Of a DNA stretch of 12,608 nt, positions 1 through 12,608 are shown one piece after another. Positions within the stretch are counted from its first letter, which is position 1. The number at the start of each line of letters is the position of its first letter. The position numbers and the translations under genes were made by a program. The notes beneath the pieces were generated by a model. It worked only from the letters and a program-made list of their open reading frames with translations. It was not told the DNA's origin and did no database searches. The DNA is taken from the NCBI GenBank assembly GCA_036149055.1, contig JAYZQJ010000221.1, positions 1-12,608 of the forward strand. The letters run 5' to 3'. This stretch comes from Myxococcota bacterium (lineage in GTDB: Bacteria; Myxococcota_A; Polyangia; Polyangiales; Sandaracinaceae).

Positions 1-98
1 GCTTGTCCCGACGCTCCAGGGCGGCGTTGCTCCTCCTCGCCGATGCGGGGCATCGACTCGTCGTCGCGCCTTGCCCTGAAACGCCGGTCCGGCGCCAT
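1..98 (-). CDS. Possible 5' fragment of a CDS running off the window start (MAPDRRFRARRDDESMPAS...)
   Basis: Minus strand reads AGAAGGGGAG-ATG (CAT at 96-98), SD-like but abutting the ATG, and the frame is open to base 1. No recognisable domain. Confidence 0.3.
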   Translation of the reverse strand, partial: MAPDRRFRARRDDESMPRIGEEEQRRPGASGQ

Positions 99-125
99 CT
101 CCCCTTCTACCGGTCGGATCTCCGC

Positions 126-167
126 ACCAGAGAGGGGGGGACGGAGTGAACTTGTGAACTTACATAG
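126..167 (+). repeat. Left copy of a 42-bp inverted repeat (REP/TIR-like)
   Basis: ACCAGAGAGGGGGGGACGGAGTGAACTTGTGAACTTACATAG matches the reverse complement of 1107-1148 at 38/42 positions. 137-163 is a 27-bp perfect match. Contains tandem GTGAACTT x2. Confidence 0.92.
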
Positions 168-192
168 GTCGAACGCCTACGTAGCCCCGTCG

Positions 193-558
193 TCACTCCT
201 CGCCGAGCGGCTGCCCGACGTCGATCCGGTGCCCGTCGGGATCGGCGACCACGAAGATGCGCATGCCCCACGGGGCGTCGCGGAGCGCCTCGACGATCTC
301 TCCGCCCGCCGCCTTCGCCGCGCGCTCGACCGCCATTGCGTCGCTCACGATCAGGTGCATGACGTTCTGAGACCGCGGCGCCGGATCCGAGCACACCGAG
401 AGGTGCACCTCGGCCGCGTCCTTCTTCATGACCACGTAGAGATCGGCCTGCGAGAAGGTGACCTCCAGCCCGAACGCCGACGTGTAGAAGCGCCGCGCGC
501 GCGCCATGTCGCGCACCGGGATCGTCGGCGCGGCTCGCCCGAGCGTCACGTCGGCCAT
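193..558 (-). CDS. VOC (glyoxalase/bleomycin-resistance) family protein, 121 aa
   Basis: PTIPVRDMARARRFY...FG N-terminus and DAPWGMRIFVVADPDGHRIDV C-terminus are typical VOC-fold motifs. Confidence 0.9.
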   Translation of the reverse strand: MADVTLGRAAPTIPVRDMARARRFYTSAFGLEVTFSQADLYVVMKKDAAEVHLSVCSDPAPRSQNVMHLIVSDAMAVERAAKAAGGEIVEALRDAPWGMRIFVVADPDGHRIDVGQPLGEE

Positions 559-602
559 GGCCCCTGGATACCCTCGGCGTCGCCACGTGCCAAGCTGGGG
601 TC

Positions 603-1097
603 ATGACCCCGACGGCGCCCCGGGTGACGTTCGTCCGCCTGGCGCGGGCGCACCTCGACGTCCTCCACGGCCTGGCGGTCGACCCCCACGTGCGGCGCTT
701 TCTGCTCGACGGGGAGGTCGTGCCGCGCGCCTGGTGCGACGCGGTGCTGGAGGCGAGCGACGCCCTGTACGCGGAGACCGGGCTGGGGCTGTATCTGGTG
801 GAGCGCGACGAGACGATCGGGTTCGCCGGCTTCCACGTGTTCGAGGAGCTCGGGCCGGAGCCGCAGCTGCTCTACGCGCTGACCGAGGCCCACGTCGGCC
901 AGGGGCTCGCGACCGAGATCGCGCGCGCGCTGCTCGAGCACGCCTTCGCGCTCGGGCGTACGCGCGTCGAGGCGGCGGTGGACGCGCCGAACGTGGCCTC
1001 GATCCGCGTGCTCGAGAAGGCGGGGTTCACGCGCATGCCGCGCACGGCGGCGGGCGCGTTCGGGGAGACGTACCTCTTCGAGGCGACGCGGGTGTAG
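603..1097 (+). CDS. GNAT N-acetyltransferase, RimJ/RimL-like, 164 aa
   Basis: HVGQGLATE acetyl-CoA loop and NVASIRVLEKAGF motif. Confidence 0.9.
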   Translation: MTPTAPRVTFVRLARAHLDVLHGLAVDPHVRRFLLDGEVVPRAWCDAVLEASDALYAETGLGLYLVERDETIGFAGFHVFEELGPEPQLLYALTEAHVGQGLATEIARALLEHAFALGRTRVEAAVDAPNVASIRVLEKAGFTRMPRTAAGAFGETYLFEATRV

Positions 1098-1106
1098 GGC
1101 GAAGGA

Positions 1107-1148
1107 CTACGTAAGTTCACAAGTTCACTCCGTCCCCTCGTATCTGGT
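1107..1148 (-). repeat. Right copy of the 42-bp inverted repeat; overlaps the last codons and stop of the citrate synthase-family gene
   Basis: GTAAGTTCACAAGTTCACTCCGTCCCC (1111-1137) is the exact reverse complement of 137-163. Confidence 0.92.
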
Positions 1149-2306
1149 CCCAGTGTATCTCGCGCGAGGCCGGAGGAGGGCGGGGCTCTCGCGTTGCTCG
1201 AGGGCGTGCGCGATCCAGCCGGCGGTGCGGCCGACGCCGAAGAGGGCGCTCGCGAGGTCGGGGCCGCCGCCCATGGAGCGGGCGAGGGCGTAGAGGGCGA
1301 GGTCCAGGTTGGGGTGGGCGCCGGTCGCGCGGGGGACGGCGTCGGCGAGGGCGAAGGCGACGTCGCGCTCGGGGCTGGCGTCGCCTTCCCGGGCGAGGGC
1401 GAGGAGCGGGGCCGCGCGCGGGTCGCCGTCCGGGTAGAGGGGGTGGTGGAAGCCGGGCACGGTGTCGCCCCGCGCGATCCGGTCCCGCAGGGCGCGCTCC
1501 ACGCCGACGCTCACGCACTCGCGCACGAAGGCCTCGAGGCGAAGCGAGGCCGCGCCGTGCTTCGGGCCGCTGAACGCGTAGAGCGCGGCGCCGACGCAGG
1601 CGTAGAGATCCGCGCCGCTCGAGGCGGTGACGCGGGCGGCGAAGGTCGAGACGTTCAGCTCGTGATCCGCGCACGCGACGAGGGCGGCGTTCACCCGCGC
1701 GGCGTGTCGCTCGTGCGCGAGCCCCCGGGCGACCGCCTCGGCGATGGAGCCCTTCACCTCGACCTGGCTCGCCGCCGCCGCGAGCGCGGTGACGAGGCGG
1801 CGCGCGCGCGCGTGCTCGAGGGCGGCGGTGGCGCCGTGCCGCAGCGGATCGGCGAGGGCGAGCCCCGGGAGCGCCGCGGTCATGCGGAACACGGGCGGGC
1901 CCTCGAGCGACGTCGGCGAGGCCGTGGGCCAGTCCCCGGGCTCGGCCTCCCAGAGCCGCTCCGCCACCGCCTCGTAGCGCACGCCGTCCGCGATCAACGC
2001 GCCGACGTCACGCCCGCGGTATCGCAAGCCGTCCTCCACCGAGGTGATCGCCGAGTCGAGCACCGGGTCTCCCCAGCGGAGGGCGCCGACCGCGACCGCC
2101 GCGTGCCCCCGCCGGGCCGCGCTCTTGGCCGCGAGGCGGTCCACGTCGTCGACCGCGTAGAGCCGACGTCGCCCGCCGGCCCGCACGCAGCGGACCAGGC
2201 CACGGCTGACGTAGGAGTAGAGCGTCGCCTTCTTCACGCCGAGCCGGCGGCACGCCTCCTCCGAGCGAATGTATTGATTGTCGATTCGAGCTGTCTCTCG
2301 ACCCAT
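1125..2306 (-). CDS. Citrate synthase-family protein with N-terminal excisionase/MerR-like HTH domain
   Basis: N-terminal [26 protein letters not shown]; citrate synthase motifs [45 protein letters not shown]. Start placed at ATG 2306 (TACGAT -10-like box 9 nt upstream; avoids overlap with the divergent gene). Confidence 0.88.
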
Positions 2307-2363
2307 CGCGCCATCATCGTAGACCCATGCAGAACGAGGCTCCACGACACGTCGATCATCAAT
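2273..2363. promoter_or_regulatory. Divergent promoter region with a pair of inverted ATTGATnnTCGA boxes (2273-2284 and 2352-2363)
   Basis: ATTGATTGTCGA versus the reverse complement of TCGATCATCAAT (ATTGATGATCGA), 10/12 identical. AT-rich islands placed symmetrically about the 20-bp gap between the divergent starts. Confidence 0.4.
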
Positions 2364-3130
2364 CCGCATATCTGCCGCGCTGGTCGCGCACCGCTCGGGA
2401 CTACGCGCGCCATCGGGCTGGCTTCCCGGCGTCGTTCTACGCGCGGGTCGAGCCGCTCCTCGGGCCCAGGGTCCTGGACGTCGGCACGGGGACCGGGACC
2501 GTCGCCCGGGCGCTCGCGAGGCGGGGGCACGCGGTCACCGCGATCGACGTCGCCGCCGGGCAGCTCGCCGAGGCGGTGCGGCTCGCCAACGAGGCCGACC
2601 TCGCGATCGACTTCCGGCGGGTCCCCGCGGAGCACACCGGGCTCGACGCGCGCTCCTTCGACGTCGCGATCGCGGCGCAGTGCTGGCACTGGCTCGATCG
2701 TCCGAAGGCGGCGCTGGAGATGCGTCGGCTGCTCCGCCCGGGCGGCCGCCTGCTCCTCGCCCACCTCGACTGGATCCCTCGCGCCGGCAACGTGGTCGAG
2801 GCCTCGGTGGCGCTGGTCCGGGCGCATCGCCGGGTGGAGCTGCCGCACCTCGAGCGGGTCTCGCTCGACGGCCTCTACGGCCCGTGGCTCGAGGATCTGC
2901 ACGCGGCCGGCTTCGAGCGCGTCGAGAGCTTCAGCTTCGACGTCGCCATCCCCTACACCGCCGAGTCCTGGCGCGGCCGGATGCGGGCCAGCGCGCACGT
3001 CGGCGCCACCCTCGACGACGCCGGCGTGGCCCGCTTCGACGCGGATCTCGCCGAGGCGCTCACCGCCTACGGCGACGCCTTCCCCGTCCCCCACCGCGTC
3101 TTCGTCGCGCACGCAGAGGAGCCGTCATGA
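2327..3130 (+). CDS. Class I SAM-dependent methyltransferase
   Basis: VLDVGTGTG motif [21 protein letters not shown]. The first ~15 codons have atypical codon usage, so the exact start is uncertain. Confidence 0.88.
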
Positions 3131-3621
3131 GTCACCCCAACGTCAAGAACGTCGCCGCGCTCGAGCCCACCGCCATCGAGAAGGGCCCGCATCGCATCGT
3201 GCGCCGCCAGCTCGGTCGGCCGGCCGGGAGCCAGCAGCTCGGCTGCAGCCACATCACGATCCCGCCGGGCGGGCGGAGCTGGCCGCGGCACTGGCACGCG
3301 GTCAACGAGGAGGCGATCTACGTGCTCTCGGGCGAAGGCGTGGCGCTGATCGGCGACGAGAGGGTGCCGGTGAAGGCCGGAGACTACGTGGCGCTTCCGG
3401 TCGGCGAGGCGCACGCCCATCAGATGCGGAACGAGGGCGCCGAGGACCTCGTCTATCTCTGCTTCAGCACGATGATCCCGCACGAGATCGCGTTCTACGC
3501 CGACACCGGCAAGGTCGCGCTCTTCGCCGGCGCGGCGCCCGGGGGAGACAAGTCCGCGCGCTTCGTCGAGCGCTACGCCTACCTGGAGGACGTCGACTAC
3601 TGGGACGACGAGGGCGCTTGA
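3127..3621 (+). CDS. Cupin domain protein, 164 aa (MSHPNVKNV...)
   Basis: Metal-binding cupin motifs [17 protein letters not shown] and GDYVALP...AHQMRN. ATGA overlap with the methyltransferase stop suggests translational coupling. Confidence 0.9.
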
Positions 3622-3646
3622 CGCCGGGCGCGTCGCGCCTCAGGCT
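3618..3646 (+). promoter_or_regulatory. Putative sigma70-type promoter for the tuf leader
   Basis: TTGACG (3618-3623), 17-nt spacer, CAGGCT (3641-3646). Confidence 0.55.
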
Positions 3647-3655
3647 CAGCGAGTC

Positions 3656-3733
3656 ATGCGGCTCGACTCACGGACAGCGTCACGCACCGCGCCCGCTCTC
3701 GCAGCGGATCGGTGCACGTGCGTCCGGAGGTAG
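3656..3733 (+). CDS. Putative leader peptide (uORF) [25 protein letters not shown]
   Basis: ATG 9 nt after the -10 box, TAG at 3731-3733. Its last codons overlap the predicted antiterminator strand. Confidence 0.5.
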
Positions 3734-3766
3734 AGAGCCCAGACCGCGAGCGCTCGCTCGAGCTGA

Positions 3767-3808
3767 AAGGCCCCTCCGGCACACGCCGAGAGGGGCCTTC
3801 GCAATTCT
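3767..3808 (+). terminator. Attenuator/terminator-like hairpin in the tuf leader
   Basis: AAGGCCCCTCCGGC-ACAC-GCCG(A)GAGGGGCCTT: 14-bp stem with one bulge, followed by a weak tail (CGCAATTCT). Confidence 0.6.
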
Positions 3809-3902
3809 GCGCGTCTCTCCCGGCGTCCCCCGGCGGGGCCAGGTCTCCCTCCGTCGTCCGCGAAGGTCGCGGCGCGTGAGGAGAAACGGAGAACGTAGAG
3901 AG

Positions 3903-5075
3903 ATGAACATCGAGAAGCAGCACCTGAGCGTCGGCACGATCGGCCACGTGGACCACGGCAAGACGACGCTGACGGCGGCGTTGACGGCCGCCACGGCCCA
4001 CGCGTTCGGCGGGACGGCGCGCGGCTTCGGCGACATCGACAACGCGCCCGAGGAGCGGCGGCGGGGCATCACGATCCAGGCCTCGCACGTGCAGTACGAG
4101 TCTCGGGCTCGCGTGTACGCGCACGTCGACTGCCCCGGGCACGCCGACTTCGTCAAGAACATGATCGCGGGCGCGTCCCAGATGGACGGCGCGATCCTGC
4201 TCGTGGACGGATCCGTCGGGGTGCAGGCGCAGACGCGTGAGCACGTCCTGCTCGCGAGGCAGGTCGGCGTCGAGCACGTCGTGGTGTTCGTCAACAAGGT
4301 GGACATCGCCGACCCCGAGCTGCTCGACCTCGTCGAGATCGAGGTGGCCGAGCTGCTCGAGGCGCACGACTACATCGACCCGCCCTTCGTGCGGGGCTCG
4401 GCCCTCGAGGCGCTGCGCGCCTGTGAGGAGGGGCGCTGGGACGACGCGCGGGTGGAGGAGATCCTCGCCCTCGTCGAGGCCCTCGACGCCCACGTGCCCG
4501 TGCCCGAGCGGGACTACGACGCCCCCTTCTTCATGCCCGTCGAGGGCGTGTGCAGCATCGAGGGGCTCGGCACCGTGATCACCGGCAAGGTCGAGCGCGG
4601 CCGGCTCTCGGTCGGCGCCAGCGTCGAGGTCGTCGGTCGCGGCGGCGAGCCGCGGCAGGCGGTCGTGAAAGGCATCCAGTCGTTCCACCGTGACGTGCCC
4701 GAGGCGGTCGCGGGCTGGAACGTCGGGCTGCTGCTCCGGGGCGTCGGCCGTGAAGAGATCGTGCGCGGTCAGGTCGCGGTCTCGCCCGGCTCGATCGCCT
4801 CTCACGCCACCGGCGAGGCGGAGATCTTCCTCCTCTCCGAGAAGGAGGGCGGCCGCAAGCGGCCCTTCGGATCGGGCTACGCGCCGCAGCTCTTCTTCGG
4901 CGTGGTCGGCGTGACCGGCACCCTCCGGTTCGACGAGGGCGTCATCGCGCCGGGTGACCGGGCGAGCGTCCGCTTCGAGCTCGACAAGGCGGTGGCCATC
5001 GAGCCCGGCATGCGCTTCGCCATGCGCGAGGGCGGCCGCACCATCGGCGCCGGGGTCGTGCGCGCGGTGGCGTGA
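3903..5075 (+). CDS. tuf: Divergent, stand-alone elongation factor Tu paralog, 390 aa
   Basis: [32 protein letters not shown] and C-terminal [22 protein letters not shown] upstream of ATG 3903. Not flanked by fusA/rpsJ or tRNA/secE genes. Confidence 0.95.
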
Positions 5076-7283
5076 TCACCCGGGCGGCGCCTCTCCCTCT
5101 TCGGCGGGAGGGGCGTCGCCCTCCTCCAGCACCAGCCGGTCGCCCTGCCAGATCCACCACTGCCGCTCCTCGCCGGGCCGCCGCACGACCAGCGCGAAGG
5201 GCTCGCGGCGCGCCCGTCCCGCGCGATCGCGGGTGCCCGACACGCTGCCTCGGCGATGATCGGGCAAGCTCTCCGCGGTCGGGAGCTGCGCCGACCAGAC
5301 CTCCCGCCGGCGATGCAGCGGCGTCGCGCTCCACTGCAGGATCCCGTCAGCGCCCAGGGAGTCGCGCGGCGCGTGGCTCGCGACCAGCAGCGTCTGCCCG
5401 CCCCCTCGAAGGGTCTCGGTCAGGAACACCTCGCCGAGCGCCCCGCCGAGGCGGTGAGTCGTGAGGCGCTCGAGCTCGCACTCGGCGTCGAGCGCGTAGG
5501 CGACGATCTCCGCGGCGCCGTAGACGTCCGGGGTGATGAGCAGGAACGCGGACCGGGGCCGGCCCTCGCTCCAGATCCGGGTGCGGACCGCGAGGCTCTC
5601 CTCGGCGGCGCGCTCGGCCTGCCCGAAGACGTCGTCGGCCTCGTCCTCGAGCTCGTCGTACACCTCACCGCCGTACACCTCCTCGAGGTAGGCGAGGCTC
5701 TCGTCCAGGATCGCGGCCCGGCTCGGCACGCAGCCCTCGAGCGGCGCGAGGAACCGCGCGGTCACCCACCCCCGCTGCCGGCGGCTCACCACGACCTGGA
5801 GGAAGCCCTCGTCGGAGTCGCCGCTCTCGTGGAGCGCGACGACGACCGTGTCGTGCGGCAGCACGCGGAGCACGTTCGGCGCGTCGGTGGTGGGCGTGCG
5901 CCGGAGGGTGAGGCGCACGGTCGAGCTCATGCGCGCCGGGCGGAGGCCCACGCTCGGATCGTAGGCCTCGGGCGCGCTCACTACGCTGCCGAGCGCCCGC
6001 ATCGCCCTCTCGAGGGCCGCCGGCGGCGTCTCTGCGGGCAGGCGCGCGGCCCAGCCGTCGTCGAGACGCGTGAAGCGGAACGGCAGCTCCCGCAGCGAGC
6101 TCGGCAGCTCGGCCCAGTCCGAGGCCAGGGCCTCGAGCGGTCGCGCCCCGGTCACCCGAACGCCCGACGGAGGTGCAGGCGTCGGTGCGGGGGGGCGTGC
6201 CGTCTCGGCGGCCGGGCCCGCGTCGGGAGGCGGCGCGGGCTCGGCGGCCGCGGGCGCGAGCTCGGCGCGCGGCGGCTCGGGCGACGCGAGCGCGAGCGCG
6301 AGGACGAGCAGCGTCGCGAGCCCGAGGGCGCCTGCCGCCGCGATCCCGATCGCCGCTCGGCCGCGACGCCGGGGCGAGGGGAGCGCCTCGGTGGGGGAGG
6401 CCATCGCGAGCCCGATCGTGCCCGGCACCGCCGGCGGGTCGGTCGCGGGGAGGGCGCCGGTGGCCGCGTCGAGCGCGTCTCGCATCGCCGCGCCGCTCGC
6501 GAAGCGCTCCGCCGCGTCTCGGCGCAGCGCCCGGTGCACGAGCTCCACGATCGCCCGCGGCAGATCGGGGCGCAGCGTGTCGAGCGGCGCGGGCTCGGTC
6601 TGGAGCGTGGCCCGGTGCACCGCGAACGCGTCGTCGCCCTCGAAGGGGCGCCGGCCGGCCAGCGCCTCGTAGAGGATCACGCCCGCCGCCCACACGTCCG
6701 CGCGCGCGTCGACGTCGCGGGCGGACTCGAACTGCTCGGGCGCCATGTAGCACGGCGTGCCCACGCTGGTGTGCGGGGCGGTGAGGTGAGGCCCGGTCCT
6801 CTTCGCGGCGCGCGAGATCCCGAAGTCGAGCAGCTTGGGGATCACCCCGTCGCCGTCCTCCGCGAGGAACACGTTCGCGGGCTTCAGATCGCGATGCACG
6901 ATGCCCGCCTCGTGGATCGCGGCGAGCCCGCCCAGCACCCCTCGCGCCCAGCTCAGCACGTCACCGAGAGGCGGCAGCCCACGCGCCAGCCGCGCGTGCA
7001 GCGTCTCGCCCGACAGCAGCGGCATCACCAGGAAGGGCGCGCCGTCCGCGTCTCCGTAGTCGAGGATGTCCACGACGTTGCGATGCTGCACCCGGGCCAC
7101 GAGCGCCGCCTCTCGCTCGAAGCGGGCGCGCGCCTCGTCGCCGTCGAGCGCCTCGCGCACCCGCTTCACGGCGACCTCGCGCCCGAGCGCGAGCTGCTCG
7201 GCTCGCCAGACCTCGCCCATCCCGCCTTCGCCCAGCCGGGCGATCAGCCGGTAGCGTCCCCCGAGGGTGTCACCCGCCTCCAC
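5076..7283 (-). CDS. Membrane Ser/Thr protein kinase with TM helix and extracytoplasmic SH3b-like domain, 735 aa
   Basis: GEGGMG, VAVK, HRDLKPAN, DFG, GTPCYMAPE. TM AAIGIAAAGALGLATLLVLALALA (~6286-6356). SH3b-like segment LTLRRTPTT...GWVTARFL (~5745-5930). GTG start. Confidence 0.92.
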   Translation of the reverse strand: MEAGDTLGGRYRLIARLGEGGMGEVWRAEQLALGREVAVKRVREALDGDEARARFEREAALVARVQHRNVVDILDYGDADGAPFLVMPLLSGETLHARLARGLPPLGDVLSWARGVLGGLAAIHEAGIVHRDLKPANVFLAEDGDGVIPKLLDFGISRAAKRTGPHLTAPHTSVGTPCYMAPEQFESARDVDARADVWAAGVILYEALAGRRPFEGDDAFAVHRATLQTEPAPLDTLRPDLPRAIVELVHRALRRDAAERFASGAAMRDALDAATGALPATDPPAVPGTIGLAMASPTEALPSPRRRGRAAIGIAAAGALGLATLLVLALALASPEPPRAELAPAAAEPAPPPDAGPAAETARPPAPTPAPPSGVRVTGARPLEALASDWAELPSSLRELPFRFTRLDDGWAARLPAETPPAALERAMRALGSVVSAPEAYDPSVGLRPARMSSTVRLTLRRTPTTDAPNVLRVLPHDTVVVALHESGDSDEGFLQVVVSRRQRGWVTARFLAPLEGCVPSRAAILDESLAYLEEVYGGEVYDELEDEADDVFGQAERAAEESLAVRTRIWSEGRPRSAFLLITPDVYGAAEIVAYALDAECELERLTTHRLGGALGEVFLTETLRGGGQTLLVASHAPRDSLGADGILQWSATPLHRRREVWSAQLPTAESLPDHRRGSVSGTRDRAGRARREPFALVVRRPGEERQWWIWQGDRLVLEEGDAPPAEEGEAPPG

Positions 7284-7322
7284 TGCGCGGGTAGACGCGC
7301 GGCGATCGGGCGTCGATTCCCG

Positions 7323-7934
7323 CTACCGCCAGCGACCTTGCCACTGGCAGGTCGCGTCGCCGCGGTGGACGCAGGCGACGTGCTCGATCTGCACGCCTTC
7401 GCCGCCCGACAGCGTGATCGCCGACTCGATCCAGCCGGCGATGCCGTACTGGCAGAGGTAGAGCGGGTAGACGGCGTCGCCGATCGTCACCGTCGCGCGA
7501 CCGCGCCCGTCGAGCGTGGTCTTCGCCCAGCCCGGCCGGAGGTACTGACGGTAGGCCACGCCGATGCTCTTCAGCACGAAGCCCGGCGTGCCGATGCGGT
7601 AGAGCGCGCGGTAGAGGGACGGGAGGTCGTAGGCGGCGATGGTCGCGCCGAAGGGCTGCATCAGCCGCATGTCTCCGCGCATCGCGATCTCGACGATGCG
7701 CTGATCGATCTCGACCATCTCGACGAGCGGGTACCAGCTCACCGGCATCGGCTCGCCCTCGAGGTGCCTGCGCGCCTCCGGGGCCGTGCCCTCGGCGACG
7801 CGTCGGAGCATCTCCTCACCCCACGTCTCGCGCACGTACCGCGGACGCGCGGCCATCAGAGAGCCCTTTACCCGCTGCTCCCGCATCGGCGCGAGCAGGG
7901 ACTCGTCACCCAGCACTTCATGAGTGATCGACAC
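7323..7934 (-). CDS. Myxobacterial DUF2378/TIGR02265-like protein with V4R-like C-terminus
   Basis: VKGS...YVRETWGEE, SWYPL and C-terminal EHVACVHRGDATC pattern. GTG 7934 has TGcTAGGGT 8 nt upstream; ATG 7886 is an alternative start. Confidence 0.7.
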   Translation of the reverse strand: MSITHEVLGDESLLAPMREQRVKGSLMAARPRYVRETWGEEMLRRVAEGTAPEARRHLEGEPMPVSWYPLVEMVEIDQRIVEIAMRGDMRLMQPFGATIAAYDLPSLYRALYRIGTPGFVLKSIGVAYRQYLRPGWAKTTLDGRGRATVTIGDAVYPLYLCQYGIAGWIESAITLSGGEGVQIEHVACVHRGDATCQWQGRWR

Positions 7935-7990
7935 CGTCGAGGACCCTAGCAGGCGTTCACCGGCGCGGCCGGCCGTGTTACCAATGGACC

Positions 7991-8872
7991 GTGGGGAGGA
8001 TCTTGCTGCTCCTGACGGTGCTGTGGATCCCTGCGCTCGCCGAGGCGCAGACGGAGCCCGAGTGGCAGCGCGGCGTGGAGCTGCGACGGCAGGGCCAGGA
8101 CGCGGCCGCGCTCGAGGTCTTCGCGGCGCTGCACGCCCGGACGGCTTCGCCGGCGAGCCTCGCGCAGGTGGCGCTGGCGGAGCAGGCGCTCGGACGCTGG
8201 GGCGCGGCGGCGCTGCACCTCGACGCGGCCCTCGCGCGACCGGACGCCTGGGTGACCGAGCGCCGCGGCGCGCTGGCGCAGGCGCGGGACGAGATCACGC
8301 GTCACGTCGGCCAGCTCGAGGTGCTCGTGAGCCGCGCGGGCCTGACGGTGGAGGTCGACGGAACGGCGGTGGGCACCTCCCCGCTCCCGGGCCCGGTGCC
8401 GGCGACCGAGGGCACGGTGGTGGTGCGCCTGCGCGAGGCCGGCCGCGTCGTGGGGGAGCGCCGGGTGACGGTGCAGCCGGGGGCGCTGTCGCGGGCGAGC
8501 CTCGAGGTCGGCGCCGGCGTGAGCGCCTCGGGCGGCGGCGCGCTCGGCGTCGTCGGCGGGGTGTCGCTCGGCGTGGGCGGCGGCGCGCTGGTCGGTGTGG
8601 CGGTCGCGTGGGCGCTCCGCGAGTCGCACGTGCAGCGCTGGAACTCCGACGAGTGCTGGCCGGCGGGCGCGACGCGCATGGAGGCCTGCCCGGGCGAGCC
8701 CGACGCGTGGAGCGCGGCGGAGACGGCGGCGATCGTGCTGGGCGCGGCCGGCGGCGCGCTGCTGGTCGCGGGCGCGGTGCTGCTCATCGTCGACGCGAGC
8801 GGCGGGGGCGGCGAGACCGCGCTCGCCTGCGCGCCCGGGCTGCTGGGCGTCAGCTGTCAGGGGCGCTTCTGA
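7991..8872 (+). CDS. Secreted TPR + PEGA-like domain protein with hydrophobic C-terminal region
   Basis: Signal peptide ending AEA-Q; TPR-like helices (WQRGVELRRQG...ALAEQALGRW); PEGA-like VEVDGTAVGTSPLPGPV; two Gly-rich hydrophobic segments; ends GVSCQGRF. Confidence 0.8.
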   Translation: MGRILLLLTVLWIPALAEAQTEPEWQRGVELRRQGQDAAALEVFAALHARTASPASLAQVALAEQALGRWGAAALHLDAALARPDAWVTERRGALAQARDEITRHVGQLEVLVSRAGLTVEVDGTAVGTSPLPGPVPATEGTVVVRLREAGRVVGERRVTVQPGALSRASLEVGAGVSASGGGALGVVGGVSLGVGGGALVGVAVAWALRESHVQRWNSDECWPAGATRMEACPGEPDAWSAAETAAIVLGAAGGALLVAGAVLLIVDASGGGGETALACAPGLLGVSCQGRF

Positions 8873-10092
8873 TGCGGGCGCGGTGCCTCGCCCTCTGCGC
8901 GCTCCTGGTCGCCTGCACCGAGCCGCTCCCCGGCGACGTGAGAAACGGAGAGGACGCGGCGGCGCCCGACGCGGGCGTGGACGACGGCGGGCGCGGCGAA
9001 GACGGCGGCCTCGAGCGCGACGGCGGGCTCCCGCTGGACGACGGCGGCTCCGACGGCGGCGGCTCCGACGGCGGCGCCCCCTTCACGATCCGGGCGATCG
9101 ACGTCGGGACCGGCTCGACGCACACCTGCGCGGTGACGACCACCAACACCGTCGTCTGCTGGGGCGCGAACGACCGAGGGCAGCTCGGGCGCGCCGAGGG
9201 CGATCGCGCGCCCGGCGTGGTCGAGGGCGTGTCGGCCACCTCGGTGTGCGCGGGCGACGGCTTCACCTGCGCGCTGACCACCGCCGGCGAGGTCGCCTGC
9301 TGGGGAGTGAACAATCGCGGGCAGCTCGGGCGCGGCGTCATGGGCGAGCCGGACTCCACGCGTCTCGTCATCGGTCTCTCGGGCGTGCGCGGCATCACCT
9401 GCGGGTCGCACCACGCCTGCGCGCTCGACGGCGACACCGTCGACTGCTGGGGGAGCAACGCCACCGGCCAGCTCGGCACCGGCGGCTCCACGGCCGCGGA
9501 TCCGTGGCCCCGGACCGCGGTGAGCTCCGCCGGCAGCGACTTCACCCTCGAAGCCGGCGCCCGGCACACGTGCTTCAGCGATCTCATTCGCGGCTCGGGG
9601 CGCACCGCCTGCTGGGGCGACAACGGGGCCGGGCAGATCGAGGAGGGCGGGAACTCCGAGTACCGCGCCGGCCTCGAGCTCAACCGCGTCTTCATCTCCG
9701 AGATGGCGCTCGGCGAGCGGCACACCTGCTTCATGACGACGGCGGGCTTCACCTGTCGCGGCTCGGACGCGCAGCAGACCGCGGTGCCCACCGCGATCGG
9801 CGGCGGGGTGGACGTGGCGGCGGCGGGGCTCTCGGCGTCGTGCGGCGGGAGCGGCGCGGACGTGGTCTGCTGGGGCGACAACGACGAATGGCAGCTCGGC
9901 ACGTCGGCGAGCGGCGCGACCCAGGCGACCGTCACCCTCCCGTCCGACGTCCGGGCGCTCGACGGCGGCGCCGGGCAGTTCTGCGCGATCGACCGCGAGC
10001 AGCGCGTGTGGTGCTGGGGGGCGAACGGCTTCGGTCAAGCGCGACCCGGCGACCCCGCCGCGCAGGTCGACCCTGCCATGCTCGGCCTGTGA
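8872..10092 (+). CDS. RCC1-repeat beta-propeller lipoprotein, 406 aa
   Basis: MRARCLALCALLVAC lipobox, DGG-rich linker, repeated HTCA...CWGxNxxGQLG units. TGATG overlap with the upstream gene. Confidence 0.9.
   Translation: MRARCLALCALLVACTEPLPGDVRNGEDAAAPDAGVDDGGRGEDGGLERDGGLPLDDGGSDGGGSDGGAPFTIRAIDVGTGSTHTCAVTTTNTVVCWGANDRGQLGRAEGDRAPGVVEGVSATSVCAGDGFTCALTTAGEVACWGVNNRGQLGRGVMGEPDSTRLVIGLSGVRGITCGSHHACALDGDTVDCWGSNATGQLGTGGSTAADPWPRTAVSSAGSDFTLEAGARHTCFSDLIRGSGRTACWGDNGAGQIEEGGNSEYRAGLELNRVFISEMALGERHTCFMTTAGFTCRGSDAQQTAVPTAIGGGVDVAAAGLSASCGGSGADVVCWGDNDEWQLGTSASGATQATVTLPSDVRALDGGAGQFCAIDREQRVWCWGANGFGQARPGDPAAQVDPAMLGL
9040..9075 (+). repeat. Short coding tandem repeat (GACGGCGGC[GGC]TCC) in the Asp/Gly linker
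   Basis: Encodes DGGS-DGGGS-DGG. Confidence 0.6.
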
Positions 10093-11654
10093 TGGAGCCG
10101 CCCGACACCCTCGAGCATCGACAGCTGGCTCCGGGCGTCCGGGCGGGCAGCTATCTCGTCGAGAAGATCCTCGGCGCGGGAGGCATGGGCCACGTGTTCG
10201 CCGCGCGCCACGTGGGGCTCGACAAGCCGGTGGTGCTCAAGGCGCTGCATCCCGCGCTCTCGTCTCGACAAGACGCCGTGACGCGGTTCGTACGCGAGGG
10301 GCGGGCGGCGTCGAAGATCCGCCACCCGCACGTCGTCGACGTGACCGACGTCGGGACGCACGAGGGCGTGCCGTTCCTGGTGATGGAGTACCTCGAGGGA
10401 GAGGATCTCCATCATCGCCTGCACGCCACCGGGCCGATGTCTCCGAGCGAGATCGCGCGGATCATGCTGCCGGTCTGCGACGCGGTCGCGCACGCGCACG
10501 ACGCGGGCGTCATTCACCGCGATCTCAAGCCGTCGAACATCTTCCTCGCCGCCGCGCCGAACGGCCGCGAGGTGCCCAAGGTCCTCGACTTCGGCATCGC
10601 GCGCATCGTCGACACCCAGCTCGACCGGGTCACGGTCACCCACGCCGCCTCGTTCCTCGGGACGCCGTTCTACGTCGCGCCCGAGCAGGCGCAGTCGGGT
10701 CGCGACGCCGACGCGCGGAGCGACCAGTTCTCGCTCGGCGTGATCCTCTACCAGCTCGCGACGGGACGGACGCCGGTCGAGGGGGGCACGCCCTTCGAGG
10801 TGATCTGCGCGATCATCCAGGGGATCAGCATCCCCATCCAGACTCACCTCCCGAACGTGGATCCACGGCTCGCCGCCATCGTCGAGCGCGCGATGGCCTT
10901 CGCGCCGGACCAGCGCTACCCGGACGTGCGCGCCCTCGGCCGGGACCTGCTCCAGCTCGCCGATCCCGCGGTGCGCGCGCAGTCGGCTGGCGTGTTCGGC
11001 GCCGACCCGATCGCCACGCCCGCCCCCGCGGCGCCTGACACCTCTCCCGACGCCTTCGCGCCGACGATGGTGCCCGCGTCGGTTCAGCCGGCGCTGACGC
11101 CCGCGCCTCCGCCTGCTCCGGTCGTCACCCCGGCCTTCACTCGCCCTGCGCCGGTGAAGCGCGCGCGGGCGCTGCCGTGGCTGGCGCTCTCGCTGGGGCT
11201 GGTGCTGCTGCTCGGAGGTGGAGTCGCCGCGTGGTGGGTCGTCTCGCGGGCGCCGGGCTCACCGGTCCAGGCGGAGGCGCCTTCGCCTGCGCCGCGCGAT
11301 GCGGTCCACTCGGAGCCGGCGGCCGCCGAATCGGAGCTGGCCGAGCCGGAGCCGCCCGAGCGGGAGCCGGCCGAGCCGGAGCCGGCCGAGCGGGAGCCGG
11401 CCGAGCCGGAGCTGGCCGAGTCGGAGGGGGTGCGGGAGCCCGAGCCTCCCGAGGTCGCGTCTCCGGAGCCGGCGCCTCCGGAGCCGCGCGCGCGACCGAC
11501 TCGCGTCATGCGGCGCGCTCCGACGCCGTCGGGGTCGCGGGCCACGCCTCCGACGCCGCGCAGCCTCCCGCGCGCGCTGCCCGCGCCGCGCCCGCGACCG
11601 ACGCCGCGCCCTCCGCCTCGGGTCGGCGCCAACAACGCGCCCATCCTGGACTGA
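10092..11654 (+). CDS. Membrane Ser/Thr protein kinase with Pro/Glu-rich periplasmic tail, 520 aa
   Basis: GAGGMG, VVLK, HRDLKPSN, DFG, GTPFYVAPE. TM WLALSLGLVLLLGGGVAAWWVV. Ends GANNAPILD. TGATG overlap with the RCC1 gene. Confidence 0.93.
   Translation: MEPPDTLEHRQLAPGVRAGSYLVEKILGAGGMGHVFAARHVGLDKPVVLKALHPALSSRQDAVTRFVREGRAASKIRHPHVVDVTDVGTHEGVPFLVMEYLEGEDLHHRLHATGPMSPSEIARIMLPVCDAVAHAHDAGVIHRDLKPSNIFLAAAPNGREVPKVLDFGIARIVDTQLDRVTVTHAASFLGTPFYVAPEQAQSGRDADARSDQFSLGVILYQLATGRTPVEGGTPFEVICAIIQGISIPIQTHLPNVDPRLAAIVERAMAFAPDQRYPDVRALGRDLLQLADPAVRAQSAGVFGADPIATPAPAAPDTSPDAFAPTMVPASVQPALTPAPPPAPVVTPAFTRPAPVKRARALPWLALSLGLVLLLGGGVAAWWVVSRAPGSPVQAEAPSPAPRDAVHSEPAAAESELAEPEPPEREPAEPEPAEREPAEPELAESEGVREPEPPEVASPEPAPPEPRARPTRVMRRAPTPSGSRATPPTPRSLPRALPAPRPRPTPRPPPRVGANNAPILD
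11334..11423 (+). repeat. Coding tandem repeat, 6 x 15 bp
   Basis: Units near GAGCCGGCCGAGCCG/CGG encoding ELAEP-EPPER-EPAEP-EPAER-EPAEP-ELAES. Confidence 0.85.
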
Positions 11655-11701
11655 CGCACTACGACCTGTCGCGCGTTTGTGTTCTCTGCGGACGGATCTA
11701 C

Positions 11702-11855
11702 GTCTTCTGGGCCGACCCGAGCTTGAGGTCGGGGCGCGAAAGCGTTACACCGAATGAACAGGCGTGTGCGCAACCGTCGTGCTCTGAACGACGCGCATCG
11801 CCAACCGAAGACCAGTGGGAGCGGCGCCGATGGAACGCGCCAATCGTTCTCCCAC
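11702..11855 (+). promoter_or_regulatory. Candidate structured 5' leader RNA of infC
   Basis: Pairings 11702-11710/11805-11812, 11712-11717/11727-11732, GCGC-GAAA-GCGT (11734-11745), 11761-11780/11788-11802 and 11815-11821/11849-11855. Confidence 0.4.
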
Positions 11856-11871
11856 GCCAACAAGGAGATAC

Positions 11872-12408
11872 ATGGGTAGAAGATTTCGTGGGGCCGTCCG
11901 ACCGAACAAGCCCGAACACCGCGTCAATCACAGAATTCGCTTCCCTCAGATCCGAGTCGTCGATCCCGATGGATCCGTCCTCGGCGTCATGAGCCCCGAA
12001 GAAGGCCGCGCGAAGGCTCGAGAGTATGGTCTCGACCTCGTGGAGATGGCGCCCAACGCGCGCCCCCCGGTCTGCCGGATCATGGACTACGGGAAGTTCA
12101 AGTACGAGCAGAGCAAGGCCAAGTCGGCGAAGAAGAACGACGGCCCGCAGCTCAAGACCGTGCAGATGCGTCCCAAGACCGACACGCACGATCTCGAGAC
12201 CAAGCTCAACCGCGCCCGCCGCTTCCTGGAGCGCGGCGACAAGGTCAAGCTCGTGATGCGGCTCCGCGGACGAGAGCGCGGCTACCCGCAGCGCTGGGTG
12301 CAGATGATGCACGAGCACGTGCAGGAGCACCTGAGCGACGTCGCCGACGTGGCGTCGAGGCCGGCCCAGCAGGGCCGCATGATCTCGATGCTGCTCGAGC
12401 CGAGCTGA
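11872..12408 (+). CDS. infC: Translation initiation factor IF-3, stand-alone copy, 178 aa
   Basis: RVNHRIR...IRVVD, GLDLVEM, PPVCRIMDYGKFKYE, FLERGDKVK, RGRE motifs. AAGGAG SD 4 nt upstream of ATG 11872. Confidence 0.95.
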   Translation: MGRRFRGAVRPNKPEHRVNHRIRFPQIRVVDPDGSVLGVMSPEEGRAKAREYGLDLVEMAPNARPPVCRIMDYGKFKYEQSKAKSAKKNDGPQLKTVQMRPKTDTHDLETKLNRARRFLERGDKVKLVMRLRGRERGYPQRWVQMMHEHVQEHLSDVADVASRPAQQGRMISMLLEPS

Positions 12409-12419
12409 CCTTCTAGGGC

Positions 12420-12608
12420 AGGGGCGGGTCCGCCCCCGCCCCCCCGCTGCGGCGGCACAACGATGTTCGCTCCGGGCTGCGCCCTCCGCAAACATCGCTG
12501 CGCCTCCTCCGCGGGGCCCCCCCACCCACTCCGGGACCTCGCTCCGCTCGGCCCCGACCCCAGCGCGGGGCGCTGGGTCCCCTGCGGCTCGCGCTCGCGC
12601 TGCGCGCG
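12420..12608. repeat. Cluster of GC-rich imperfect palindromes (REP-like or terminator region)
   Basis: Long imperfect stem 12442-12467/12491-12516 (CGATGTT/AACATCG core), stem 12556-12579, CGCTCCGCTCG-type motifs. Confidence 0.5.

Follow-up and report, generated by a model that had tools for sequence, protein, structure and literature searches.

A candidate ribosome-mediated attenuator in the leader of a divergent EF-Tu gene of Polyangiales

Overview of the locus

A spacer of 281 nt separates a cupin gene from an EF-Tu paralog gene on the same strand in a Myxococcota bacterium (Sandaracinaceae; GCA_036149055.1, contig JAYZQJ010000221.1). Judged from its sequence, this spacer is probably the 5' leader of the paralog transcript and acts as a trp-type, ribosome-mediated (leader-peptide) transcription attenuator. 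The features are listed in Table 1 with their coordinates in the window, which is the whole stretch of DNA analyzed (positions 1-12,608, forward strand). What the analysis shows is the set of sequence elements, how they are conserved and covary, a bias toward rare codons in the uORF frame and the logic of the folds. The attenuator is a known kind of switch, and its target, a divergent EF-Tu, is undescribed for this control. No description of this leader was found in the open-access literature on EF-Tu leaders and attenuation, myxobacteria, tuf3 and leaderless uORFs.

A promoter, a uORF and a terminator had been proposed at this place in an earlier note on the same DNA. That reading was supported, as every one of its structural elements recurs in orthologous leaders. 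The claim that the arrangement is better than chance is based on this comparison with orthologous leaders and not on the window by itself.

Table 1. Features of the EF-Tu paralog gene and its leader, in window coordinates
Feature	Position	Strand	Remarks
Sigma-70-type promoter	3618..3646	+	-35 TTGACG 3618-3623, spacer 17 nt, -10 CAGGCT 3641-3646
Leader uORF, 25 sense codons and TAG	3656..3733	+	ATG 3656, stop 3731-3733; no Shine-Dalgarno
Candidate sensor codons TCA-CGG-ACA-GCG-TCA (codons 5-9)	3668..3682	+	Three very rare codons
Region 2, predicted antiterminator strand CGTG..CCGGAGG	3717..3730	+	Last five uORF codons
Predicted terminator hairpin (regions 3 and 4)	3767..3799	+	5' arm AAGGCCCCTCCGGC, 3' arm GCCGAGAGGGGCCTT
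Degenerate U-tract CGCAATTCTGCGC	3800..3812	+	Aligned to TTTTCGCATTT tails of less GC-rich relatives
Second conserved hairpin	3848..3881	+	-19.3 kcal/mol; counterparts in orthologous leaders L007, L009 and L010
Divergent third EF-Tu, 390 aa	3903..5075	+	Regulated gene; NCBIfam EF-Tu subfamily models passed

Conservation of the leader

The EF-Tu paralog was detected in 58 of the 401 Polyangiales genomes searched. The earlier note had staked its reading on conservation in orthologs, and conservation was found: an ATG uORF followed by a GC-rich hairpin was located upstream of the paralog in 48 of the 58 loci, a count that overstates the independent support since the loci are relatives. The arrangement was present in all seven GTDB families carrying the paralog, and the hairpin followed the end of the uORF at a median distance of 26 nt (IQR 23-32). 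The other 10 loci failed the automated uORF-plus-hairpin criteria. The terminators in the count of 48 were chosen with a motif filter; a less circular count was obtained with a hairpin covariance model (R1) built from 16 leaders, which had sense-strand matches (E<=0.01) upstream of the gene in 38/58 paralog loci versus 0/16 canonical tuf loci.

In a sister species, whose paralog protein is 95% identical, the homology begins at window position 3636 and the leader shows 246/295 identities, and the upstream gene is a different one. The cupin gene precedes the paralog in only one of 14 loci. These comparisons indicate that the leader is linked to the EF-Tu paralog, whichever gene lies upstream.

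Proposed mechanism

In the proposed model, the transcription start, the translation of the uORF, the termination event and the signal are all predicted. Transcription would begin a few bases before the uORF AUG, and the ribosome would load on virtually leaderless RNA. A ribosome reaching the stop codon would cover region 2 (CCGGAGG), so that the hairpin 3767-3799 could form and transcription would terminate before the EF-Tu gene. With no ribosome on the leader, region 1 (codons 5-9) would pair with region 2 and the terminator would form as well. A ribosome held early, at the TCA and ACA codons 5, 7 and 9, would cover region 1 and leave region 2 free. The freed region 2 would then pair with the emerging 5' arm of the terminator, and RNA polymerase would read through into the EF-Tu gene. 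Such a switch would report slow decoding at codons of minor Thr and Ser tRNAs, and the response would be synthesis of the alternative EF-Tu. The slow decoding may stem from a shortage of Ser/Thr-tRNA or from a general drop in active EF-Tu ternary complex.

Promoter and leader ORF

The TTGACG-N17-CAGGCT motif listed in the earlier note was present, and its -35 hexamer overlaps the cupin stop codon. The same layout (-35 matching at least 5/6, spacer of 16-18 nt, -10 of the form NAnnnT) was observed 6-15 nt before the uORF ATG in 27/48 orthologous leaders versus 0/311 control anchors, which were sites in coding sequence. A consensus scanner applied to positions 3000-5400 called no promoter and no terminator; the window has a weak -10 hexamer and a U-poor tail, and the scanner thresholds (9/12 hexamer matches, 5 T in 8) are unmet by such high-GC signals.

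The near-leaderless 25-codon uORF was likewise found as had been described, and it has a comparable ATG uORF in each of the 48 leaders. The ATG lies 9 nt past the -10 hexamer. Because the promoter ends 6-15 nt before the ATG in the 27 loci mentioned above, the uORF is effectively leaderless. Across the 48 leaders the uORF has a median length of 32 codons (range 15-41), its second residue is Arg in 29/48, and the interior between start and end varies freely in length and content. In the sister species the uORF has 25 codons with an unchanged stop, despite five non-synonymous codon differences.

Rare codons in the leader ORF

Unusual A-ending codons (two TCA, ACA and GCA) and a final AGG had been pointed out in the uORF. 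All of them were confirmed, TCA at codons 5 and 9, ACA at codon 7, GCA at codon 16 and AGG at codon 25, and the rarity of TCA, ACA and AGG could be computed. Over ten CDSs of the window (3354 codons), the frequencies of TCA, ACA and AGG are 1.5, 1.2 and 3.6 per 1000, or about 3% of the respective amino-acid families.

The bias is specific for the reading frame of the uORFs. TCA was counted 76 times in frame versus 13 and 4 times in the other two frames, and ACA 41 times versus 6 and 2 times. TCA makes up 76/242 of the Ser codons in the uORFs versus 1/429 in the paralog CDSs, and ACA 41/104 of the Thr codons versus 5/768. At least one of the two codons, TCA or ACA, was present in 42/48 uORFs. 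The candidate sensor codons of the window coincide with region 1 (3667-3680), the partner of region 2 in folds that contain no ribosome. In the family of the window, the conserved ACA lies within the CGGAC stretch forming region 1; thus, codon selection and RNA pairing are inseparable there.

The in-frame excess of rare Ser and Thr codons would fit a Ser/Thr-tRNA shortage at least as well as EF-Tu inhibitors. It is possible, if rather doubtful, that the same attenuator is amino-acid specific and responds to how well Ser and/or Thr tRNAs are charged (starvation, SerRS/ThrRS inhibition) and not to a general failure of EF-Tu, in which case the paralog would be a starvation-phase factor. Ser accounts for 16.3% of the residues in the uORFs versus 3.5% in the paralog CDSs, and several families have four to six Ser in a row. 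Of the uORF Ser codons, 220/242 are TCN and 22/242 AGY, compared with 155/429 AGY in the CDSs. TCN codons are serine-starvation sensors in Bacillus subtilis sinR, according to the accessible part of that study (PMC3862929), and the Streptomyces tuf3 gene is apparently under positive stringent control in the portion available of an earlier report (van Wezel et al., 1995). However, the dominant rare codon alternates between families, which fits a rare codon better than one amino acid. Thr-ACA dominates in the window's own family f1, where it was found in 10/10 uORFs, and in f9 (7/9) and f3 (2/3), while Ser-TCA dominates in f17 (7/7) and f18 (14/17). Moreover, the window uORF contains two Ser codons only, and nothing ties an EF-Tu paralog to the supply of Ser or Thr.

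Predicted antiterminator pairing and ribosome-dependent folds

The attenuator model depends on an alternative pairing of the last uORF codons, which the earlier note had also claimed. The perfect complement is present, since CCGGAGG (3724-3730) matches CCTCCGG (3773-3779), and CGTG (3717-3720) pairs with CACG (3782-3785) in constrained folds. This part of the claim stood, but the 7-bp match in the window was no better than in shuffled sequences, with an antiterminator duplex of -16.0 kcal/mol versus a shuffle mean of -16.9 (z +0.33). Among the five closest leaders, GTCCGGAGG is kept in four and replaced by a variant in the fifth. Pairing between the 3' end of the uORF and the 5' arm of the terminator beats 95% of shuffles in 19/48 loci. 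In unconstrained folds, 3667-3680 was seen to pair with 3716-3729.

When the window leader was folded with parts masked by a ribosome, the three-state logic was reproduced. In a transcript ending before the 3' arm, a ribosome on codons 5-10 gave an antiterminator probability of 0.98; the value was 0.006 when the ribosome was left out and 0.00 when it was placed at the stop. At equilibrium, the terminator of the full leader formed in every ribosome state (P ~0.97), and the model therefore requires kinetic, co-transcriptional control. The co-transcriptional truncation is thus the only informative fold, and equilibrium folding of the whole leader under masks is uninformative. In the orthologous set, two-way switching by at least 0.3 was shown by 22/48 leaders versus 14/144 shuffled controls, the other 26/48 being without it, and the strict pattern by 15/48 versus 6/144.

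Predicted terminator hairpin and downstream structures

A 14-bp hairpin had been claimed at 3767-3799 and is indeed present. In its stem, AAGGCCCCTC (3767-3776) is perfectly complementary to GAGGGGCCTT (3790-3799), and four inner pairs with one bulged A bring the total to 14 bp (-29.2 kcal/mol with extension). The R1 covariance model matched the window hairpin at 3762-3808 with 28.9 bits (E 5e-6).

The stem also covaries in orthologous leaders. Covariation was scored as a pair count over 35 model-delimited segments; the window row is shifted by one column in this alignment, which lowers the count. Stem pairing was 87.6% versus 80.1% in shuffles, and the covariation score was 0.273 versus 0.141, with none of 500 shuffles as high in either measure. 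The best slid control reached 0.159, and 6/11 stem pairs are altered on both sides. When 48 hairpin segments were simply aligned with MAFFT, arms and loops fell out of register and RNAalifold gave no structure.

Behind the window stem, the tail CGCAATTCTGCG is U-poor, with 4 T in 12 nt. Its place is taken by canonical U-tracts (at least 6 T in 12 nt) in many relatives, which are the less GC-rich ones. The lack of a proper U-tract in the window and in high-GC relatives would suit uORF-dependent control without intrinsic termination, either by Rho-dependent polarity or by translational control through structures in 3800-3902, an alternative that we consider unlikely. Two structures downstream point the same way: the second conserved hairpin, located 3' of the terminator and just 5' of the EF-Tu ribosome-binding site, and a 24-nt inverted repeat that connects the terminator with 3817-3840. 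However, many relatives carry a canonical terminator of stem plus U-tract at the homologous place, and the Shine-Dalgarno GGAG (3888-3891) lies outside the second hairpin.

Origin of the hairpin and RNA-library contigs

The hairpin lies 3' of the cupin gene on the same strand, and could be a mere terminator or insulator of this upstream gene, with the EF-Tu promoter downstream of 3800 and the uORF a chance frame. Open frames of some length are frequent in DNA this rich in GC, and ordinary genes at other places in the genome end with this type of hairpin: the hairpin model had five further matches there, four of them ordinary 3' terminators and one an ilvD leader. Nonetheless, this explanation is very unlikely. 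The leader is conserved although the cupin gene is nearly always absent (present in 1/14 loci), the hairpin is 146 nt past the cupin stop, a promoter directly precedes the uORF in 27/48 loci, and the TCA/ACA bias is frame-specific. In addition, contigs from RNA libraries extend from the uORF through the hairpin into the gene. Two runs of one study gave coverage of 3667-3974, and another run of that study gave coverage of 3785-3974, all with 0 mismatches. The contigs bridge the uORF, the hairpin and the EF-Tu start; such contigs reveal neither ends nor strand nor regulation, and the libraries may contain DNA.

A gap between RNA contigs at 3413-3625 (four runs) together with the contig start at 3667 had been considered as a sign of a transcription start near 3653, and was rejected because contigs cannot show starts and a gap is no proof. 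The five other hairpin matches in the same genome were checked as possible regulon members, and 0/5 was a second copy of this leader. The ilvD gene of this genome is preceded by a leader ORF rich in Val, Leu and Ile and by the same type of hairpin.

The region 3650-3810 folds to -86.5 kcal/mol versus a mean of -67.1 and beats 200/200 dinucleotide shuffles, and the leader is more structured than shuffles in two folding tests (z -4.8 and -3.7). Rfam gave no match at the gathering threshold over the whole window, including the Thr, His, Leu and Trp leader families, and at E<=1 over 3560-3960 only a chance microRNA match (19.5 bits versus a gathering score of 88). A translation-independent leader whose structure is recognised by a ligand, a tRNA or a protein (as a riboswitch, or in autoregulation by the paralog) might explain this degree of structure and a CCCCTCCGG arm conserved beyond the needs of a plain terminator, but is most improbable given the lack of an Rfam family, the free variation of the uORF interior and the indications of translation from the frame-specific codon bias and the promoter-adjacent ATG.

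The divergent EF-Tu and its possible roles

The gene behind the putative attenuator encodes a protein that passed the NCBIfam models NF000766 (493.9 bits, cutoff 449) and NF009372 (486.8, cutoff 479) and scored 481.3 with the equivalog TIGR00485, under its cutoff of 522.4. The latter score indicates a paralog within the EF-Tu family but not a standard orthologue. The paralog shares about 50% identity with canonical tuf in relatives; the canonical tuf copies of its own genome sit at contig ends. It retains the GTPase motifs and, in Thermus numbering, His67, Thr62, Glu226, Thr239 and Asn285.

Thermus Y161 and E. coli R333 are positions that we take to confer resistance to EF-Tu inhibitors. Among the 34 paralogs compared, the former is H or Q in 26 (H in 21, Q in 5) and still Tyr in 4, and the latter is G in all 34. 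The aminoacyl pocket is altered as well (Thermus numbering): D227 is replaced by G in 23/34, E271 by Q in 32/34 and R274 by H in 33/34 paralogs, F229 is changed in 25/34 and D284 in 34/34.

Such changes might reflect an EF-Tu with a remodelled aminoacyl-adenosine pocket that is specialised, for example for Ser/Thr-tRNAs at UCA/ACA, with the leader metering that delivery step, although we regard this as improbable. The nematode mitochondrial EF-Tu2 is serine-specific. If the specialised-delivery reading were true, the speed at which specific rare codons are decoded would be tied to production of a dedicated elongation factor in a closed feedback loop, one that is kept throughout an order and may have arisen convergently in other phyla. 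Divergent EF-Tu paralogs may serve in starvation or development, in the delivery of particular aminoacyl-tRNAs, or by being insensitive to EF-Tu-targeting antibiotics of competitors.

No other translation factor is as abundant as EF-Tu, whose genes are commonly regarded as constitutive. Here, a third, diverged EF-Tu is retained across many Polyangiales behind a predicted switch for ribosome speed. If the attenuator model is true, the supply of ternary complex or of Ser/Thr-tRNA would be measured directly on a leaderless mini-ORF, and the answer to slow translation would be a change of the elongation factor itself. A stress-induced alternative EF-Tu would then have been reached in Streptomyces by another route (WblC), and attenuation by single rare codons with leaderless translation would be added as a case in Myxococcota.

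Comparison with known systems

The classical trp, his, thr, leu and ilv leaders of Enterobacteria consist of a promoter-proximal short ORF with regulatory codons and an intrinsic terminator before the first structural gene. Their regions 1:2, 2:3 and 3:4 form mutually exclusive hairpins, and an early stall leads to read-through. The leader described here is predicted to share the short ORF near the promoter, the exclusive regions and the terminator before the gene. In contrast to the classical attenuators, its target is a translation factor instead of a biosynthetic operon, its uORF is leaderless, and its sensor in the window consists of isolated, very rare TCA and ACA codons instead of a run of codons for a single amino acid.

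Antibiotic-responsive ribosome-mediated attenuators precede translation-rescue genes such as vmlR in B. subtilis (PMC9226507) and hflXr in Listeria (PMC6310831), and the actinobacterial whiB7/wblC uORF belongs to the same kind (PMC7157823), each as set out in the available part of the respective source. As in these systems, a ribosome stalled on the uORF is proposed to relieve a terminator and to induce a factor that sustains translation. The induced factor differs, being EF-Tu instead of an ABC-F protein, HflX or WhiB.

Leaderless polycysteine short ORFs act as cysteine-responsive attenuators in mycobacteria, according to the accessible part of a preprint (bioRxiv 10.1101/834739). As far as that part goes, they resemble the present proposal in being leaderless short ORFs at the 5' end whose codon content sets downstream expression, and differ in the amino acid, the phylum and the target genes. 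With B. subtilis sinR (PMC3862929) the proposed leader would share the slowing of ribosomes at TCN serine codons as a signal; in the portion of that study available, the sinR codons are located within the regulated ORF and act on the translation yield, without a uORF or terminator.

In terms of the target, tuf3 of Streptomyces is comparable. At 15 actinobacterial loci inspected superficially, no similar leader of uORF plus terminator was seen, and a superficial screen for hairpins at 40 loci with actinobacterial Tuf3-like or planctomycete EF-Tu genes gave no obvious counterpart, which is not evidence of absence. Actinobacterial Tuf3-like proteins are likewise changed at positions Thermus Y161, D227, F229 and R274, but the replacing residues differ and the identity to the window paralog is only 50-55%. 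In the part of the literature available, EF-Tu3 is a third, divergent and dispensable EF-Tu that is induced with the WblC translation-stress regulon (PMC7157823), and the title of one report states that it is resistant to three classes of EF-Tu inhibitors. Both systems thus have a third, divergent EF-Tu; they differ in that tuf3 is controlled, as the accessible portion of the source has it, at a WblC-dependent promoter, whereas the Polyangiales paralog would be controlled by attenuation in its leader.

The EF-Tu paralog and its locus

The source genome (order Polyangiales, Myxococcota; 9.9-Mb) is assembled in 289 contigs, among which the window is contig C221. The EF-Tu-family protein encoded here scored above the NCBIfam EF-Tu subfamily cutoffs and below the equivalog cutoff, and shared ~50% identity with the canonical tuf products of related genomes. 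The genome's own canonical tuf copies were found as pieces at contig ends only, where duplicated genes usually turn up. On these grounds the gene is evidently a third, diverged EF-Tu copy, called the paralog below together with its orthologues.

Features of the leader and its surroundings (window positions unless another contig is named)
Feature	Position	Strand	Remark
Cupin-domain gene	end at 3621	+	upstream neighbour of leader
Spacer/leader before EF-Tu paralog		+	281-nt; subject of the finding
uORF	3656-3733		ATG 3656 to TAG 3733
Region 1	3667-3680		codons 5-9 of uORF
Region 2	3716-3729		last codons of uORF
Antiterminator, 5' strand	3724-3730		CCGGAGG
Antiterminator, 3' strand	3773-3779		CCTCCGG
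Terminator hairpin	3767-3799		
Match to hairpin covariance model	3762-3808		28.9 bits
Inverted repeat	3769-3792 / 3817-3840		24-nt, 79% complementary; joins terminator 5' arm and loop to downstream stretch
Second conserved hairpin	3848-3881		between terminator and ribosome-binding site of EF-Tu gene; -19.3 kcal/mol; counterparts in L007, L009 and L010 (loci of relatives)
EF-Tu-family gene (paralog)	3903-5075	+	390-aa; NCBIfam subfamily match
Ser/Thr protein kinase gene	5076-7283	-	convergent with paralog, abuts its stop codon; sister-species DNA homology reaches into it
Second Ser/Thr protein kinase gene	about 10100-11654	+	also flanks paralog region
ilvD leader	G000:C33 (same genome), about 92350-92660; L161, about 1240-1575		promoter-like site, leader ORF and hairpin; 31 bits with the hairpin model (R1)

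Elements of the leader

The elements described in the earlier note were all found in the sequence at the positions given there. The promoter hexamers TTGACG and CAGGCT are separated by a 17-nt spacer, the uORF comprises 25 codons, and the hairpin combines an outer stem of 10 perfect bp with four further pairs inside it and a single bulge. The two antiterminator strands are complementary, and the codons regarded as unusual are truly rare in ten genes of the window (TCA 1.5, ACA 1.2 and AGG 3.6 per 1000; 3354 codons). The leader fold was better than those of 200/200 shuffles (z -4.8). Simple consensus scanners called no promoter and no terminator in the leader, and an Rfam search of it matched no family. 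The tail after the hairpin, CTTCGCAATTCT, aligns with the U-tracts of relatives, yet it is degenerate. The inverted repeat may give the read-through RNA one more conformation; at one other locus (L010), an analogous alternative pairing joins the terminator 3' arm with downstream sequence.

Conservation of the leader with the paralog

In a sister species with a 95% identical paralog protein, DNA homology begins at window position 3636, within the promoter, and covers the leader (246/295 identities) and the paralog gene. Another gene lies upstream in that species, and the cupin gene was present in 1/14 loci. Because homology spans leader and gene while the upstream gene differs, the leader can be assigned to the paralog gene. 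Alignment of the five closest leaders indicated that the promoter and the uORF start (MRLD-RT) were kept. The motif GTCCGGAGG occurred at the uORF end in four of the five, with a variant in the fifth, and CCCTCCGGC, on the hairpin's 5' side, was invariant.

The paralog was detected in 58 of the 401 Polyangiales genomes sampled, spanning seven GTDB families; 58 upstream regions were collected, and one more was cut short by its contig end. Automated criteria recognised a uORF that starts with ATG and stops ahead of a hairpin in 48/58 regions, a count that is partly circular because the hairpin was picked by a motif filter. Across these 48 loci, the uORFs had a median length of 32 codons (range 15-41) and ended a median of 26 nt (IQR 23-32) before the hairpin. 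At one locus (L045, genome G139), short tandem repeats with CCGAAC- and CCACCGGAA-type units replaced the uORF-plus-terminator leader in the 300 nt upstream of the paralog, which suggests loss or displacement of the leader in this genome.

A promoter preceded the uORF ATG in 27/48 loci compared with 0/311 control anchors in coding sequence, when a -35 matching TTGACA at 5/6 positions at least, a spacer of 16-18 nt and a -10 fitting NAnnnT were demanded. The -10 ended 6-15 nt (mode 9-10) ahead of the ATG. As no space is left for a Shine-Dalgarno sequence, translation of the uORF would have to begin at a leaderless or almost leaderless 5' end.

To lessen the circularity of the motif-filtered count, a covariance model was built from 16 hairpins. 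It gave sense-strand matches upstream of the paralog in 38/58 loci (E<=0.01), the window among them; at the same threshold 0/16 canonical tuf loci matched, one of them giving a weak match at an E of 0.22. Relatives of lower GC content carry textbook U-tracts of the TTTTCGCATTT type after the stem. Stem covariation, which the earlier note had named as a check, was present among 35 leaders, with a score of 0.273 against 0.141 in column shuffles and 0.159 in the best slid control. In the same leaders, stem pairing was 87.6% compared with 80.1% in column shuffles (0/500 as high), and both-sided changes occurred in 6/11 stem pairs.

Predicted ribosome-dependent folding

According to the proposed model, a ribosome finishing the uORF would lead to termination, while one held early would permit read-through into the paralog. 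In the window's leader without a ribosome, region 1 pairs with region 2 and the terminator forms. Antiterminator probabilities were computed with ribosome footprints on a transcript ending just before the terminator 3' arm. The CCGGAGG:CCUCCGG pairing reached 0.98 when the footprint covered codons 5-10. It fell to 0.006 in the ribosome-free transcript and to 0.00 when the ribosome stood at the stop codon. At equilibrium the terminator was favoured in all ribosome states (~0.97); the attenuator model therefore needs kinetic control, as does the classical trp leader.

Averaged over the 48 leaders, the terminator 5' arm was sequestered to 0.46 in the absence of a ribosome, to 0.80 when the ribosome stalled early and to 0.49 when it stood at the stop codon. 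Two-way switching by at least 0.3 was seen in 22/48 leaders versus 14/144 dinucleotide-shuffled controls, and a strict switch pattern in 15/48 versus 6/144. Pairing of the uORF 3' end with the terminator 5' arm fell within the best 5% of shuffles at 19/48 loci (mean z -1.2); that of the window itself was no better than shuffles (z +0.33).

Codon content and the candidate signal

The uORF peptide is weakly conserved, with 5/25 codons differing non-synonymously from the sister species. The codon content of the uORFs is frame-specific: in the 48 uORFs, TCA occurred 76 times in frame versus 13 and 4 times in the other two frames, and ACA 41 times versus 6 and 2, although these counts are not independent events because the loci are relatives. 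TCA made up 76/242 Ser codons in uORFs and 1/429 in paralog coding sequences, and ACA 41/104 and 5/768 Thr codons, respectively. At least one TCA or ACA was present in 42/48 uORFs. ACA dominated in GTDB families f1 (that of the window, 10/10), f9 (7/9) and f3 (2/3), and TCA in f17 (7/7) and f18 (14/17). In f1, ACA sits in a CGGAC stretch also used for RNA pairing.

Two signals fit these data. Under the first, ternary-complex supply would drop as a whole, EF-Tu inhibition included, and the drop would be felt first at minor-tRNA codons. The second is a specific shortage of Ser/Thr-tRNA. The alternation of families between Thr-ACA and Ser-TCA argues for rare codons as such. In favour of serine, the uORFs are Ser-rich overall (16.3% of residues, compared with 3.5% in paralog coding sequences and 12.0% and 7.7% when read in the other frames) and biased towards TCN (220/242 Ser codons), and a serine signal has a precedent in Bacillus subtilis sinR (PMC3862929).

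RNA-library contigs and other hairpin matches in the same genome

Four seawater metatranscriptome runs from one study contained much of the window stretch. A 308-nt assembled contig without mismatch spans 3667-3974 in two runs, and a 190-nt contig spans 3785-3974 in a third. The contigs link uORF, hairpin and EF-Tu start in one molecule, as expected of a read-through transcript; contigs of this kind reveal neither ends nor strand nor amount, and all these libraries may include DNA.

The hairpin model had five other matches in the same genome, four of which were ordinary 3' terminators. The fifth lies between ilvD (TIGR00110, 651.7 bits) and a leader ORF with a terminal Val/Leu/Ile run, an arrangement that resembles the classical leader-peptide attenuators of branched-chain amino-acid genes, here in a myxobacterium. 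This organism evidently uses leader-peptide attenuation with such a terminator. Leader-peptide attenuation is a textbook class of mechanism; a search of open-access papers returned no description of such an attenuator before an EF-Tu gene. We consider it probable that a conserved ribosome-dependent attenuator controls the diverged EF-Tu.

The paralog protein and comparison with known systems

Alignment of 34 full-length paralogs and 16 canonical Polyangiales EF-Tu to Thermus EF-Tu indicated that the paralog retains the GTPase motifs, His67, Glu226, Thr239 and Asn285. Relative to the canonical proteins, the pocket for the aminoacyl-adenosine end, to which GE2270A binds, is altered. Substitutions among the 34 paralogs were D227 to G (23), F229 to C, H or Y (24) or N (1), D284 to H, E, L, W or M (34), E271 to Q (32) and R274 to H (33). 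At Y161 the residues listed were H (21) or Q (5), together 26, and the original Tyr (4), and the arginine equivalent to E. coli R333 was G in all 34. In E. coli EF-Tu, mutations at Y160 and R333 confer resistance to kirromycin and pulvomycin. The canonical two-copy EF-Tu (L019-L022 and L024-L035) have an unusual switch-I segment compared with window 4030-4080, and the same segment was seen in EF-Tu loci of Planctomycetota and Verrucomicrobia. The third copy retains the classical segment, which makes the spare EF-Tu more conventional here than the canonical one.

Nematode mitochondria reportedly possess a serine-specific EF-Tu, EF-Tu3 of Streptomyces is said to resist three classes of EF-Tu inhibitors, and Streptomyces tuf3 is reportedly subject to positive stringent control. 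Actinobacterial Tuf3-like proteins are changed at some of the positions altered in the paralog, but to other residues. Streptomyces tuf3 is also a member of the WblC translation-stress regulon (PMC7157823).
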